The notes under the pieces are model-generated. The model saw only the letters and a program-made list of their open reading frames with translations. It was not told the origin of the DNA and ran no database searches. 64,000 nt of DNA from Escherichia coli (GTDB lineage Bacteria; Pseudomonadota; Gammaproteobacteria; Enterobacterales; Enterobacteriaceae). The position numbers and the translations under genes were made by a program. Positions 38,325 to 46,999 of this stretch are shown here, piece after piece. The DNA is taken from assembly GCF_050320075.1 (NCBI RefSeq), contig NZ_CP190018.1, one strand, 5' to 3'. Positions within the stretch are counted from its first letter, which is position 1. Each line of letters begins with the position of its first letter.

Positions 38325-41248
<2,924 letters not shown>

Positions 41249-41330
41249 CTAAACTTTCAGGAGATTTATTATGAATAAACGTATCCTCACGATTGCGCCA
41301 TTCTTCTTACCGATATTCTGACACACATCA

Positions 41331-42257
41331 TTAACTTTCTATTTTTACTCTTTTCTCCACCATAAAATCAATAAAAGCACGAACTTTAGAGGGCATTCTC
41401 ACCCGTGATGAAACATATATATAAAATCCAGGAAATGAAACGGCCCAATCCTCAAGAATCGGCTGTAACTTGCCCGCATTGATATGTTCAGCGATTGCAA
41501 AATCCAGATGTTGAATGATACCCGTTCCATTCAGCGCCATTCGTATCATGCTTTCGTCATCATTAGAAATATACTTACCTGAAACCTCTATTTCGAACTC
41601 TTCATTACCCCCCACAACATTAGAAAACTCCCATGCAGAGAGTGCACCGCTACTTTTATGCCGCAACCGAAGGCAATTATGGTTACTCAGTTCCTGAGGC
41701 GTTTCAGGAATACCGTGTTCTTTTAAATAATCTGGCGATGCCACAGTAACCAGTTTAATAAGCGGAGAAACAGGAACGGCAGTCATATGCTCATCCAGTC
41801 CTTGCTCAAGACGTATGCCCACATCACAGCCGTCCGCAATAATGTTAGATAAACCGTCATCCATAATGAGTTCTATCTTTGTTTTGGGGTAACGAGTAAG
41901 AAACTCGCCAATATGAGGCTCAACAAGCATCCGTGCTGCAACACGGGAGGAATTTATTCTCAACAGGCCTGTAGGTTCAAGTTGGGTATCACCAACATCT
42001 TTCAAAGCATCATCAATTTGCCCCAAAGCCGACACCAGCACTTCATACAGACGCTGTCCTTCCTCAGTAAGCGACATATTGCGGGTCGTACGGTATATCA
42101 GCTTGGTGTTAAGACGTTCCTCAAGAGATTTTAAATTCTGGGACAATGCGGCCCGCGTAATACCCATTTCAGAAGCGGCTCTGGAAAAACTGCCGGCACG
42201 AACAATAAGCGCAAACCAGGCAAGAGAAGGCAAAATTGAAGGCTCTATTTTCATCAT
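41331..42257 (-). CDS. LysR-family transcriptional regulator, about 308 aa
   Basis: HTH LAWFALIVRAGSFSRAASEMGITRAALSQNLKSLEERL. Divergent from the hydrolase/OYE genes. Start uncertain (internal MMKIEPS). Confidence 0.75.
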   Translation of the reverse strand: MMKIEPSILPSLAWFALIVRAGSFSRAASEMGITRAALSQNLKSLEERLNTKLIYRTTRNMSLTEEGQRLYEVLVSALGQIDDALKDVGDTQLEPTGLLRINSSRVAARMLVEPHIGEFLTRYPKTKIELIMDDGLSNIIADGCDVGIRLEQGLDEHMTAVPVSPLIKLVTVASPDYLKEHGIPETPQELSNHNCLRLRHKSSGALSAWEFSNVVGGNEEFEIEVSGKYISNDDESMIRMALNGTGIIQHLDFAIAEHINAGKLQPILEDWAVSFPGFYIYVSSRVRMPSKVRAFIDFMVEKRVKIES

Positions 42258-42413
42258 TGTAAACCTTAACTTAACACTGTGATAGATATTAGACCATTGA
42301 TGATAACCAATACAAGTCATACTATTACGCCGTTCTCGATATGAACACGAATGCCAGTTGCGGATAATAGAAATGATATTTAAATCTGTTTAGGCAAATC
42401 CCCGGAGCTTGAA

Positions 42414-43334
42414 ATGAAAACTGTTTCGATAAAACATACTTACTGGGATATAGCTGCTGATATCTATTTCCCTGACGATTTTAATAGTGAAAAAAAGTAT
42501 CCTGCCATTATCAGCGCCCATCCAATTGGAAGCTGCAAAGAACAGACATCGGGTAGTGTGTATGGTGCCGCCCTGGCAAAAGCTGGTTTTATCGTCATTG
42601 CTTTTGATGCCAGTTTTCAGGGAAGCAGCGGTGGAGAACCGCGTTATCTGGAAGATCCAACAATGCGAGTAAAAGACTTCAGCATTGTCGTTGATTACCT
42701 TACCACCTTACCTTACGTTGATGCCGGGCGTATTGGTGTACTGGGTATTTGTGGTGGAGGTGGATATGCCATTAATGCCGCAATGACAGAACGTCGAATT
42801 AAAGCTATTGGTACTGTCACGGGTGCAAACTACGGGCGTCTTATGCGTGAGGGATTTACAGCGTTTAATCCTATCGGAGCACTCGAAGCGATGGCGCAAC
42901 AAAGAACAGACGAAGCTAACGGCGCAAAACTTCGCGTAGATGATTTACTCCCCTCTTCTCCGGATGCAGCTCTTGAAGCGGGATTAACAGAAATAGACCT
43001 TTTTGAAGCCACAGAATATTATCGTTCGCCACGAGGCTGTGCACCTAATGGGGTAAATCGTTCGCTATTCTCACATCAGACTGTTGCCGTGGGTTGGGAT
43101 GCATTTCATCTTGCAGAAGTCCTGTTAACTCAACCAATAATGGTTGTGGTGGGCGATAGAGTGGGCGCATTTGGTGCCTACCGTGACGGCTGCGAAATTA
43201 TTGGCCGCGCTGCCTCAAAACATAAAGAGCTGGTCGTGGTTGAAGGTTATTCACATTACGACCTGTATGATAAGCCAGAACCTGTGAAACAGGCACTCGA
43301 AAAATTAATTCCTTTTTATAAAACACATTTGTAA
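42414..43334 (+). CDS. Alpha/beta-fold hydrolase (dienelactone-hydrolase-like), cytoplasmic, 306 aa
   Basis: Nucleophile-elbow-like LGICGGGGYA and a C-terminal HxD region (GYSHYDLYD). No signal peptide. Paralogue of 61616..62752. Confidence 0.65.
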   Translation: MKTVSIKHTYWDIAADIYFPDDFNSEKKYPAIISAHPIGSCKEQTSGSVYGAALAKAGFIVIAFDASFQGSSGGEPRYLEDPTMRVKDFSIVVDYLTTLPYVDAGRIGVLGICGGGGYAINAAMTERRIKAIGTVTGANYGRLMREGFTAFNPIGALEAMAQQRTDEANGAKLRVDDLLPSSPDAALEAGLTEIDLFEATEYYRSPRGCAPNGVNRSLFSHQTVAVGWDAFHLAEVLLTQPIMVVVGDRVGAFGAYRDGCEIIGRAASKHKELVVVEGYSHYDLYDKPEPVKQALEKLIPFYKTHL

Positions 43335-43507
43335 TAATCTTACAGGGAGATTCCTTATCTCCCTGACATTTATCCTTTATTGACTACACAACAATAATAA
43401 AATTACTCAAAAAGAATTCTATTAAAGGAAAAAAAGCATCAAAAAGTAGCAACTCAACTTATTAAGATTATACGCATTAAAATCAGATAAACATTTGAGG
43501 TATTGTT

Positions 43508-44650
43508 ATGACAAATAAACACCCATCATTGTTTTCTCCTTTTATGCTGACAGAAAAAATAAAGCTACGTAATCGTATCGTTATGGCTCCTATGACAACC
43601 TGGTCAGCTAATCCTGATGGAACCATCTCTGAGCAAGAACTCGAATTTTATAAACGTCGCTCACAAAATGTTGGTTTAGTAATAACAGGATGCACCTATG
43701 TCACGCCAAGCGGCATTGGGTTTACTCATGAATTTGCCGCGTATGACGACCGTTTCATTAACAGCCTTGAAAAGTTAGCAGCTGCAGCCAAAAGTGGCGG
43801 TGCTCCGGCTATTTTGCAGATTTTCCACGCTGGTAATAAAGCCATCCCGGAGCTTGTGCCAAATAACGATGTTATTAGTGCCAGCGCATCAAGCGTAAAA
43901 TCTGGTGACTTTATGAAGAGAGTGGTACAAAGCAGGGAAATGACTGAAAACGAAATTCAGGAAACCATTAGAGCATTCGGAGATGTCACAAAAAGGGCGA
44001 TTAAAGCAGGTTTTGATGGCGTTGAACTTCATGGTGCGCACGGATTCCTTCTACAGAATTTCTTCTCCCCTCTATTTAACCAGCGTAATGACCGATGGGG
44101 AGGAGATCTCGAAAGACGTATGCGATTCCCGCTGGCCGTATTACAGGAAGTAAAAAATGTAGTCTATGAATATGCGACAAAGCCCTTTGCCATCGGTTAC
44201 AGAATATCTCCTGAAGAATCTGCAACAGGGGGGCTGCGGATAGAGGATACTTATAAACTCCTTGATCGGCTCATTGCATCCGGTATTTCGTATATACATA
44301 CCTCGCTGGTCAGTATTAACGATAGCTACCCTGTTGAGTCGCCAAATGGCCCCCGAACTATTGAATTGATTTTAAATCATATTGCAGGCAGAGTGCCGGT
44401 AATCGCTGCAGGTAAAATACGCACACCGTCTCAGGCTCAAGAAGCAATTTCCACTGGCCTGCCACTTGTTGCGATCGGTAAAGGGCTGGTGATAAATCCA
44501 GAATGGGTGACTTTAGCTGAATCAGGTAGAAGCCATGAAATTCAAACAACCCTTAATCCACAACTTGTTCCTGAATTAACCATTCCGGATAAACTATGGG
44601 ATCAAATTCAGGCATCGAAAGGAACTGGCTGGTTTCCGTTAATGGATTAA
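43508..44650 (+). CDS. Old-Yellow-Enzyme family NADH:flavin oxidoreductase, 380 aa
   Basis: OYE motifs: RIVMAPMTT, GFDGVELHGAHGFLLQNFFSP, and a C-terminal TIM-barrel GKG segment. Confidence 0.8.
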   Translation: MTNKHPSLFSPFMLTEKIKLRNRIVMAPMTTWSANPDGTISEQELEFYKRRSQNVGLVITGCTYVTPSGIGFTHEFAAYDDRFINSLEKLAAAAKSGGAPAILQIFHAGNKAIPELVPNNDVISASASSVKSGDFMKRVVQSREMTENEIQETIRAFGDVTKRAIKAGFDGVELHGAHGFLLQNFFSPLFNQRNDRWGGDLERRMRFPLAVLQEVKNVVYEYATKPFAIGYRISPEESATGGLRIEDTYKLLDRLIASGISYIHTSLVSINDSYPVESPNGPRTIELILNHIAGRVPVIAAGKIRTPSQAQEAISTGLPLVAIGKGLVINPEWVTLAESGRSHEIQTTLNPQLVPELTIPDKLWDQIQASKGTGWFPLMD

Positions 44651-45121
44651 ATATCTATTACTCTCCCGAGTGTAAAACTATCAAACCAATGAGTAACCGA
44701 TACAGCCTCGCAAATTCTTTCAGATAATTAACCCGTCACTGCGGCACGTTCTCTCATAAGGCGTGCCTGCTGTGTAATCCAGTATGGATCCAGCATAGTT
44801 GACGGCTTAATAGACTCAATTCCTTTCCCAGGTTACCAACAACGATATCTTGTATAACACCCCAGAAGATACGACATTATGATGAGATGAGGTATGCTCC
44901 TCAGCGCCAATCAACGCCAGGGCTGGGCCAGTTTTGAGATCAGACTCATTCCCGGACTGACTTCAGGCGACATATATCAATGACGTTGGGGCAATAAAAG
45001 ATAGCCGATGTAATACATCTATTCAAATTTGTGATACATGTCAAAAAATTGGTTGACCAAACTCGTTATTTATATAAGGGCACTTACGAAGTGCACTCTT
45101 TTTTAAAGCGAGGAAGTACCA

Positions 45122-45223
45122 ATGAAAGAGAATAAAGTACAACAAATCAGTCATAAACTGATTAATATCGTTGTTTTTGTCGCAATTGTAGAATACGCCT
45201 ATTTATTTCTCCATTTCTATTAA
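45122..45223 (+). CDS. ykgR: Small membrane protein, 33 aa
   Basis: ATG preceded by a GAGGAAG ribosome-binding site. Translation MKENKVQQISHKLINIVVFVAIVEYAYLFLHFY has a single helix. Found by hand; too short for the ORF track. Confidence 0.55.
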   Translation: MKENKVQQISHKLINIVVFVAIVEYAYLFLHFY

Positions 45224-45552
45224 TAACGGCAATAAACTGTTCACTTCAGTGATATTAAAAAATATGCATCCTCTCCCTTTTTTGTAAGTAATTATTATAT
45301 CCGTGGGAGAGGAATACACGCTGTCCGGCAATCAATCAAACTGCGATAAATCATCGGCCAGTAAAATGGAGATAGCCTCCATTCTCGAAAAATTCATACT
45401 CTCAGCGAAACCATCACTCATCAAGGCGTTTATGGGAGCGTCGCCAATGGCTGCTAACAATGCCAGACTTCCCCGTTGCCGAAATTCCACATACCACAAA
45501 TGGTCACAGGGATTGGGTGTTGAAATGATCCGGATGAGCATGTATCTTTATG

Positions 45553-45570
45553 GTTATGTTATAACATAAC
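45553..45570. promoter_or_regulatory. Zur box (zinc-uptake-regulator operator) upstream of ykgM
   Basis: Perfect 18-bp palindrome GTTATGTTATAACATAAC ending 12 nt before the ykgM start codon. Confidence 0.7.
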
Positions 45571-45581
45571 AGGTAAAAATG

Positions 45582-45845
45582 ATGAAGCCCAATATCCATC
45601 CTGAGTATCGTACTGTGGTGTTCCACGACACCAGTGTTGATGAGTACTTTAAAATCGGCTCGACTATCAAAACAGACCGTGAGATTGAGCTGGATGGAGT
45701 AACGTATCCGTACGTGACAATTGATGTCTCTTCTAAATCGCACCCGTTCTATACAGGGAAGCTGAGAACAGTGGCATCAGAAGGAAATGTTGCACGATTC
45801 ACCCAACGTTTTGGTCGTTTTGTTAGCACGAAAAAGGGGGCATGA
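45582..45845 (+). CDS. ykgM: Ribosomal protein L31 paralogue (type B, lacks the zinc ribbon), 87 aa
   Basis: [32 protein letters not shown]... is an L31-type sequence without the CxxC pairs. Zur box immediately upstream. Confidence 0.9.
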
Positions 45846-45985
45846 TGAAAGTCCTTAACTCTCTGCGTACCGCAAAAGAACGCCATCCAGACTGTCAGAT
45901 TGTGAAGCGAAAAGGACGGCTATATGTGATTTGTAAATCTAATCCACGTTTTAAGGCCGTTCAGGGTCGTAAGAAAAAACGTTGA
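45845..45985 (+). CDS. ykgO: Ribosomal protein L36 paralogue, 46 aa
   Basis: Hand translation [46 protein letters not shown]. The start overlaps the ykgM stop. Too short for the ORF track. Confidence 0.85.
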
Positions 45986-46036
45986 TTCAAAATTCGACGA
46001 ATTAACGATATTTGTCTGATTAATAATCAGACCGGA

Positions 46037-46075
46037 TTAATGTTGGTGTATTTATTACACCAGCATTAATTTTCC
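46037..46075 (+). terminator. Probable rho-independent terminator of ykgM-ykgO
   Basis: 14-bp stem TTAATGTTGGTGTA / TACACCAGCATTAA with one mismatch, loop TTTAT, then TTTTCC. Confidence 0.55.
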
Positions 46076-46391
46076 TGGGGATGTATCTTCCTGTTCATTT
46101 AAAGTCAACTGCCTGACGTTTCTCTCCGAATATTCCATTATATTAATGTTGACTTGTTGACCAGGTGCGCCCTGTATGCTGGCATCAACTCTCTTTTAGA
46201 CTGAACACGCCACTCAGTTTCCTCCCTTTGCGACGCAGCCTGCATTTACACTCAAACGGTTAAGATGATAAATGTGGTAAATCTGTTGGTACTGACATAA
46301 AAACGTTTACGCCACAGGAACGGCCTGATCCACCGGTAACCCCATCGCCGACGTTCGAGTGCCAGTTAGAGTAACGCGCACAGATGACTGA

Positions 46392-46616
46392 ATGCAGTGC
46401 CCTGGCAAAGAGGCCATCGTTCCTGTGACAACTGGCAGTCTTCGTTTAACTTCACTTAATTTGGCTCTTAGGGGGCTTACCGGACAGATGACGTACTTAC
46501 ACCTGTTTAATTTTTCATCACTTATTGGGATGAACCCCCATAACCATTTTGTGCGGCATGTTAATCCATTAAAACACCTTACTGATTGGCAAATCATCTT
46601 TAATTATGACTCATGA
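46392..46616 (+). CDS. Hypothetical small protein, 74 aa; possibly ykgL by position
   Basis: ORF-track entry in the AT-rich region upstream of ecpR. No recognisable motif, so coding status is uncertain. Confidence 0.25.
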   Translation: MQCPGKEAIVPVTTGSLRLTSLNLALRGLTGQMTYLHLFNFSSLIGMNPHNHFVRHVNPLKHLTDWQIIFNYDS

Positions 46617-46999
46617 TAGTTTTATATTCTATTTCTTATCATTTAAACTTGTTTTTTTACTAGTCCATTACACAACACATTAAGACTATTCCTAACACCT
46701 CAGGGCAAAGTTCCTGGCTAATATAAAATGCAAGTAAGAATTGAACGTTATATTGCCAATAACCTTATGAAACTGAATGTCTTTTTCTTCTTATCAAAAA
46801 AGCAATATTTTCATTTTTTGTAAATATTGACTTAACCATGGAATTCCTTTTCTGTTCACATATTGACACTCATCAGGAAAAAAACATAAATTTAAACCTA
46901 ATCGAAATAATTAAAACTTAATCTCGTTTAACCTATATTGATATGTGCTACGTATCTTATTTACTTCCGATTTACTAAAGAAACTGAATGTACCTGTAA

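Follow-up and report, generated by a model that had tools for sequence, protein, structure and literature searches.

A perfect palindrome in front of two short genes for ribosomal proteins, located within a 64-kb stretch of Escherichia coli DNA (the window), raises the question whether this locus is the zinc-sparing ribosome remodelling system that a preliminary description recognized in it, and whether it holds anything beyond what has been published for that system. We identify it, with a probability of roughly 97%, as the zinc-repressed ykgM-ykgO operon of E. coli (L31p/L36p, bL31B/bL36B) together with its Zur operator. The operon is already known in full detail, and there is nothing new at the locus. 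The earlier recognition stands on the basis of family models, ligand loss, conservation of the box, identity to K-12 and the published K-12 experiments. A 901-bp query (45300-46200) showed up to 100% identity to E. coli chromosomes, and with the same query the locus was found in 5,061 of 5,426 complete E. coli genomes. RefSeq annotates, in this order, ykgR, ykgM (type B L31), ykgO (type B L36), the convergent ykgL and the ecp pilus operon, and the gene order in K-12 MG1655 is the same. Sequence anatomy, family membership, ligand loss, the conservation of box, promoter and gene pair, and the identity to K-12 were observed directly in the present analysis. For conservation, 80 loci with close relatives of YkgM were compared, taken from contigs representing one genome per species (81 loci including the window); the sampled genera were Escherichia, Citrobacter, Kluyvera, Enterobacter, Klebsiella, Salmonella, Serratia, Photorhabdus, Brenneria, Vibrio and Pseudoalteromonas. 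The operon and its signals are arranged as follows:

45520-45525, + strand: -35 hexamer TTGAAA, from a consensus scan, with a constant spacing between TTG and box in 81 loci
45543-45548, + strand: -10 hexamer TATCTT behind a 17-nt spacer, from a consensus scan, with TA conserved across genera
45553-45570, no strand assigned: Zur box, a perfect 18-bp inverted repeat of GTTATGTTA and TAACATAAC, assigned by its sequence, its conservation and the Gilston 2014 pattern
45571-45574, + strand: putative Shine-Dalgarno-like AGGT of ykgM, predicted from the sequence, with GAGG or AGG at the same place in orthologues
45582-45845, + strand: ykgM, type B (zinc-free) L31 (bL31B), 87 aa, no cysteine, from the ORF listing, RefSeq, family models and PDB
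45835-45840, + strand: putative Shine-Dalgarno-like AGGGGG of ykgO within the 3' end of ykgM, predicted from the sequence and conserved in Escherichia
45845-45985, + strand: ykgO, type B L36 (bL36B), 46 aa, from the ORF listing, RefSeq, family models and PDB
46014-46032, + strand: small hairpin GTCTGATTA-A-TAATCAGAC, dG -8.1 kcal/mol, z -3.3, weakly conserved
46035-46073, + strand: long AT-rich hairpin with a stem of 16-17 bp, a 5-nt loop and UUUU; stem 46035-46071, dG -21.1 kcal/mol, z -7.9

The two genes had been described as encoding paralogues of L31 and L36, an assignment that is borne out by Pfam and by the type B models of NCBIfam, which both proteins match above the cut-offs. YkgM aligns over its full length with PF01197 (L31; 87.1 bits, E 8.9e-25), exceeds the cut-off of TIGR00105 and reaches 122.9 bits with NF002462 'type B 50S ribosomal protein L31' (cut-off 86); with the type A L31 models NF000612 and NF001809 it stays below their cut-offs. 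In the ribosome structure PDB 6i7v, chain D7 ("L31 type B") is YkgM, with identity over the 68 modelled residues. For comparison with the canonical proteins, the sequences of RpmE and RpmJ were verified residue for residue against hundreds of PDB entries of E. coli ribosomes and then aligned with their paralogues. In this alignment YkgM carries a 12-residue insertion relative to RpmE, and all four zinc ligands of RpmE (C16/C18/C37/C40) are lost, being replaced by T/V/S/S. With no cysteine among its 87 residues and consequently no Cys-x-x-Cys motif, YkgM indeed lacks the zinc-binding cysteine pairs, as had been claimed, and 79 of the 81 orthologues are likewise free of cysteine.

YkgO obtained 68.6 bits with PF00444 (L36) and 91 bits with NF002021 'type B L36' (cut-off 70), and it is identical to chain C5 ("L36 2") of PDB 6i7v. 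Here the loss of ligands is incomplete: the RpmJ ligands C11/C14/C27/H33 align with His14/Cys17/Cys30/Phe36, so that two of the four positions of the Cys3-His motif are disrupted and two of the three ligand cysteines (Cys17 and Cys30) are retained. The same H-C-C-F pattern occupies the ligand positions in 69 of 71 parsed L36B orthologues, and the equivalent of His14 is missing in Pseudoalteromonas (locus L078) and in PDB chain 9hig_3, which are more distant type B L36 proteins. The characterization of both products as zinc-independent paralogues therefore holds for the cysteine-free YkgM and has to be qualified for YkgO, which keeps two of three cysteines. With His14, Cys17 and Cys30 in place, the presumed zinc independence of YkgO rests on the motif argument of the literature. 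It is quite improbable that these three residues, which are conserved in enterobacteria, still form a metal site and that YkgO is not strictly zinc-free, and the lack of the histidine in Pseudoalteromonas and 9hig_3 speaks against it; if YkgO did hold a metal, the label 'zinc-independent' would be fully right for YkgM only.

An L36B gene is located directly 3' of the L31B gene in all 81 loci; in 71 of them L36B was parsed automatically with a sequence pattern, and the other ten were inspected and have the gene directly after the L31B stop codon. In the 71 parsed loci the two genes overlap by up to 4 nt or are separated by up to 17 nt, except for one locus with a distance of 197 nt. The invariable position of L36B after L31B supports co-transcription and, probably, coupled translation. 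In the window, the start of ykgO was said to overlap the stop of ykgM, and both the ORF listing and RefSeq agree with this, the overlap being a single base within TGATG. An alternative ATG for ykgO at 45842, which would result in an ATGA overlap, is peculiar to this lineage and not conserved. It is created by an A/G difference to K-12 at 45842, one of four coding substitutions between the two operons, all of which are synonymous.

The 18-mer GTTATGTTATAACATAAC at 45553-45570 is, as described, a perfect inverted repeat with two arms of 9 bp each and the sole perfect palindrome with arms of at least 9 bp in the 64-kb window, which contains neither a second copy of the 18-mer nor further Zur boxes at up to three mismatches (expected 0.01). 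Dinucleotide shuffles contained on average 0.3 such palindromes per window and at least one in 28% of cases. The palindrome alone is therefore not improbable, and its significance derives from its sequence, position and conservation. The spacing of 12 nt from the ykgM start given in the preliminary description was reproduced as the difference between 45582 and 45570, which corresponds to 11 intervening nucleotides. A box with no more than four mismatches was found upstream of L31B in all 81 loci, mostly 12-14 nt before the start codon, compared to none in 1,467 control windows of 105 nt drawn at random from these loci, where the closest match had five mismatches. Within four Escherichia lineages the box is invariant and its flanks vary. 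The half-sites GTTATGTTA and TAACATAAC match the 18-bp Zur operator pattern RxxxYRxxR·YxxYRxxxY, derived from the crystal structure of the Zur-DNA complex (Gilston 2014, PMC4219657), at all eight R/Y positions. The same study characterized the L31p operator of K-12 as the most palindromic and most tightly bound operator of the Zur regulon, with 560-fold repression and Zur binding in EMSA (PMC4219657). As a text string, the 18-mer gave no match in the full text of the papers searched; the published operator is displayed in figures only.

Anchored on the first base of the box, only three elements besides the box itself were conserved: TTG at -33 to -31, TA at -10/-9 and a purine-rich ribosome-binding site. 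Since the conserved TTG and TA coincide with the -35 and -10 hexamers of the consensus scan, 4 nt separate the -10 hexamer from the 18-bp core, which extends over the transcription start that we infer to be at about 45553-45556. On these grounds the operator is predicted to overlap the start site, at 4 nt past the -10 hexamer. The palindrome had been placed over the promoter, and this is accurate for the predicted start site, which it covers, and inaccurate for the hexamers, as the core starts 4 nt past the -10. With a length of about 30 bp, the published Zur footprint (PMC4219657) would nevertheless reach the -10 hexamer, so that the phrase is right in effect. Inside the box, the motif TGtTATAAC (45557-45565) is similar to an extended -10 element (TGnTATAAT); its use as -10 would leave only about 10 nt between the transcription start and the ATG. 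We favor TATCTT as the -10 hexamer, because the TTG and TA upstream of the box are conserved across species.

With a transcription start at about 45555 the box would be part of the transcript, and together with the frequency of perfect 18-bp palindromes in shuffled windows this could suggest that the palindrome acts as RNA, as a hairpin or attenuator in the 5' leader, or that it arose by chance as an AT-rich palindrome and is no repressor site. However, the RNA structure predicted for 45555-45600 does not exceed that of shuffled sequences in stability (dG -2.6 kcal/mol, z +0.46), the sequence of the box is conserved across genera beyond its pairing potential, it fits the Zur operator pattern, and the K-12 experiments were performed with the identical sequence (PMC4219657). 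A transcribed box that lacks a significant RNA fold points to a DNA site; the role as leader hairpin was rejected for lack of significant RNA structure, and we regard this whole alternative to a Zur operator as exceedingly improbable. An Rfam scan of 44600-46700 at E <= 1 yielded only two sub-threshold chance matches (snoR01 and folP RNA) and no ribosomal-protein leader.

The start codon of ykgM is the ATG at 45582, which is both annotated in RefSeq and conserved in the family; another ATG in the same frame, at 45579, is E. coli-specific and missing from E. albertii and the cryptic clade. Further upstream, 25-45 nt before the -35 hexamer, a block GTTGC..AATTCCACATACCA (about 45475-45496) is kept in E. 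albertii and cryptic-clade Escherichia, and the spacer around it diverges. In a biosensor based on the ykgMO promoter, inclusion of the whole intergenic region lowered the background (PMC10410751). The long open reading frames across the spacer between ykgR and ykgM (45303-45569 on the + strand and 45332-45541 on the - strand) are not regarded as genes, in view of a 1-nt deletion in K-12 and fast divergence in other Escherichia.

The small gene ykgR (45122-45223), encoding a 33-aa membrane protein, lies on the same strand 360 nt upstream of ykgM. Just before it, at 45080-45103 and about 430 nt past an oxidoreductase gene, there is a terminator-like hairpin with a T-run (GCACTTACGAAGTGC and ACTCTTTTTT). 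Collinearity between the window and K-12 MG1655 extends from 49356 down to 44559 and resumes at 38325, so that about 6.2 kb (38326-44558) are absent from K-12. The genes of this segment encode aldo/keto reductases, two LysR regulators and an alpha/beta hydrolase, and it also includes most of the gene (43508-44650) for an OYE-type NADH:flavin oxidoreductase of 380 aa; the last approximately 90 bp of that gene are represented in K-12 by the 'ykgP' pseudogene.

The region 3' of ykgO folds far better than shuffled sequences (z -4.8), and a strong hairpin terminator had been proposed at 46037-46075. The hairpin was indeed found (dG -21.1 kcal/mol), and its designation as a strong terminator is reduced to a plausible one by a U-run of four and the lack of a call. 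Only four U residues (46070-46073) follow the stem, and a terminator consensus scan did not call it. From its sequence and position, we consider the long hairpin at 46035-46073 to be the probable end of the ykgMO transcript. It could instead act as a stabilizer or processing stop of the 3' end, or be an element of the convergent ykgL, and not be an intrinsic terminator of ykgMO. The short U-run and the silent scan are compatible with such a role, as is the location of the hairpin inside the ykgL reading frame on the opposite strand; moreover, in E. albertii and a cryptic-clade strain the long stem is kept, including one double change from G-C to A-U, and the U-run is lost. On the other hand, the very stable stem is located 50 nt past the end of ykgO and carries a U-run in E. 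coli, classical GC-rich terminators occupy the corresponding position in other genera, and ykgL is a frameshifted pseudogene here. We therefore judge a function other than termination to be unlikely. The remnants of ykgL (46020-46245, - strand), which is convergent with ykgO and annotated as 'frameshifted' in RefSeq, correspond to pieces of K-12 YkgL in three different frames, and both hairpins behind ykgO lie in or over its 3' end.

Zur binding, the response to zinc, incorporation into ribosomes and repression of rpmE are known from the literature, and since promoter, box, 5' UTR and proteins are identical to those of K-12, the results obtained with K-12 and related strains apply directly. 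A chromosomal ykgM-lacZ fusion was silent and was induced about 1000-fold in a zur mutant or by TPEN (PMC7297116). In E. coli Nissle exposed to calprotectin, expression of ykgM increased about 2500-fold and that of ykgO about 1000-fold, and the ykgMO promoter has been used as a calprotectin/zinc biosensor (PMC10410751). Replacement of L31 by YkgM in ribosomes was reported (PMC9825181, PMC7873864), and L31p was found to repress translation of rpmE (PMC9825181).

In the mechanism that we propose, two dimers of zinc-loaded Zur, one on each face of the DNA, would occupy 45553-45570 under zinc-sufficient conditions and, lying over the predicted start site, would exclude RNA polymerase and keep the operon silent. 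Upon zinc depletion, Zur would leave the DNA and the sigma-70 promoter TTGAAA-17-TATCTT would give rise to a bicistronic mRNA with a short leader. Translation of ykgM would begin at the ATG at 45582 and that of ykgO at the overlapping TGATG with its own Shine-Dalgarno sequence, an arrangement that implies coupled translation, and the transcript would probably end at the hairpin at 46035-46073; we infer the exact transcription start site, the translational coupling and the terminator from the sequence. YkgM, devoid of the four zinc cysteines of L31, and YkgO, with its disrupted Cys3His motif, would then substitute for L31 and L36 in the 50S subunit, so that ribosome assembly may proceed without zinc and the zinc bound by L31 and L36 may be spared or released; YkgM additionally represses the translation of rpmE.

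The benefit of this exchange is still debated, with zinc release from old ribosomes and the mere assembly of zinc-free ribosomes as the two views. It is possible, albeit in our estimate the less probable case, that the operon is controlled by Zur and yet serves mainly as a fail-safe for ribosome assembly when L31 and L36 cannot be metallated, or for the formation of functionally different (stationary-phase or specialized) ribosomes. According to papers cited in PMC9825181 and PMC7297116, YkgM and YkgO enter ribosomes in stationary phase, and ribosomes with bL31B differ slightly in fidelity and in growth in the cold; the repression of rpmE by L31p (PMC9825181) is also in line with such a role. 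The near-equivalent activity of the paralogues (Ueta 2020, as cited in PMC7873864) counts against this view. A fail-safe or specialized function does not conflict with the sequence, as it concerns the physiology and neither the anatomy of the locus nor the switch. For the strain analyzed here, we retain the reading as a Zur-repressed operon of zinc-sparing paralogues, with which no observation conflicts. Since promoter, operator and proteins are those of K-12, the locus offers no new biology and no fresh test of an open question; the value of the analysis lies in the correct annotation only, of what is a textbook case of metal-sparing ribosome remodelling.

The closest known system is ykgM-ykgO of K-12 itself, which is the same locus. 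No base differs between the window and K-12 in the segment 45517-45697, which extends from the -35 hexamer to nucleotide 116 of ykgM, the YkgM and YkgO proteins are identical as well, and the neighbors are the same, with ykgR upstream and ykgL and ecpR-ecpE downstream. In addition to the synonymous substitutions, the window strain differs from K-12 by three substitutions in the downstream hairpin, by the frameshifts in ykgL and by the roughly 6.2 kb of upstream DNA that K-12 lacks. In Yersinia pestis, ykgM-rpmJ2 (Li et al. 2009, PMC2706843) is likewise an L31B-L36B pair behind a Zur box near the start codon. There, the region protected by Zur overlaps the -10 element of ykgM, and repression was demonstrated with a lacZ fusion, EMSA, footprinting and primer extension (PMC2706843). 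In contrast to the spacer-less 9+9 box of the window, which extends from -29 to -12 relative to the ATG, the Y. pestis box GATGTTACATTATAACATA has a 9-1-9 structure and extends from -34 to -16. More distant counterparts are ytiA (rpmEB) of Bacillus subtilis and the alternative (C-) operons of mycobacteria. They differ in the set of proteins, which comprises L31 alone in B. subtilis and S14, S18, L28 and L33 in mycobacteria, in their Gram-positive or actinobacterial Zur boxes, and in being linked to ribosome hibernation, a connection not known from E. coli. Like the operon described here, these systems supply Zur-repressed paralogues without cysteines in place of zinc-ribbon proteins during zinc starvation (PMC6094098).
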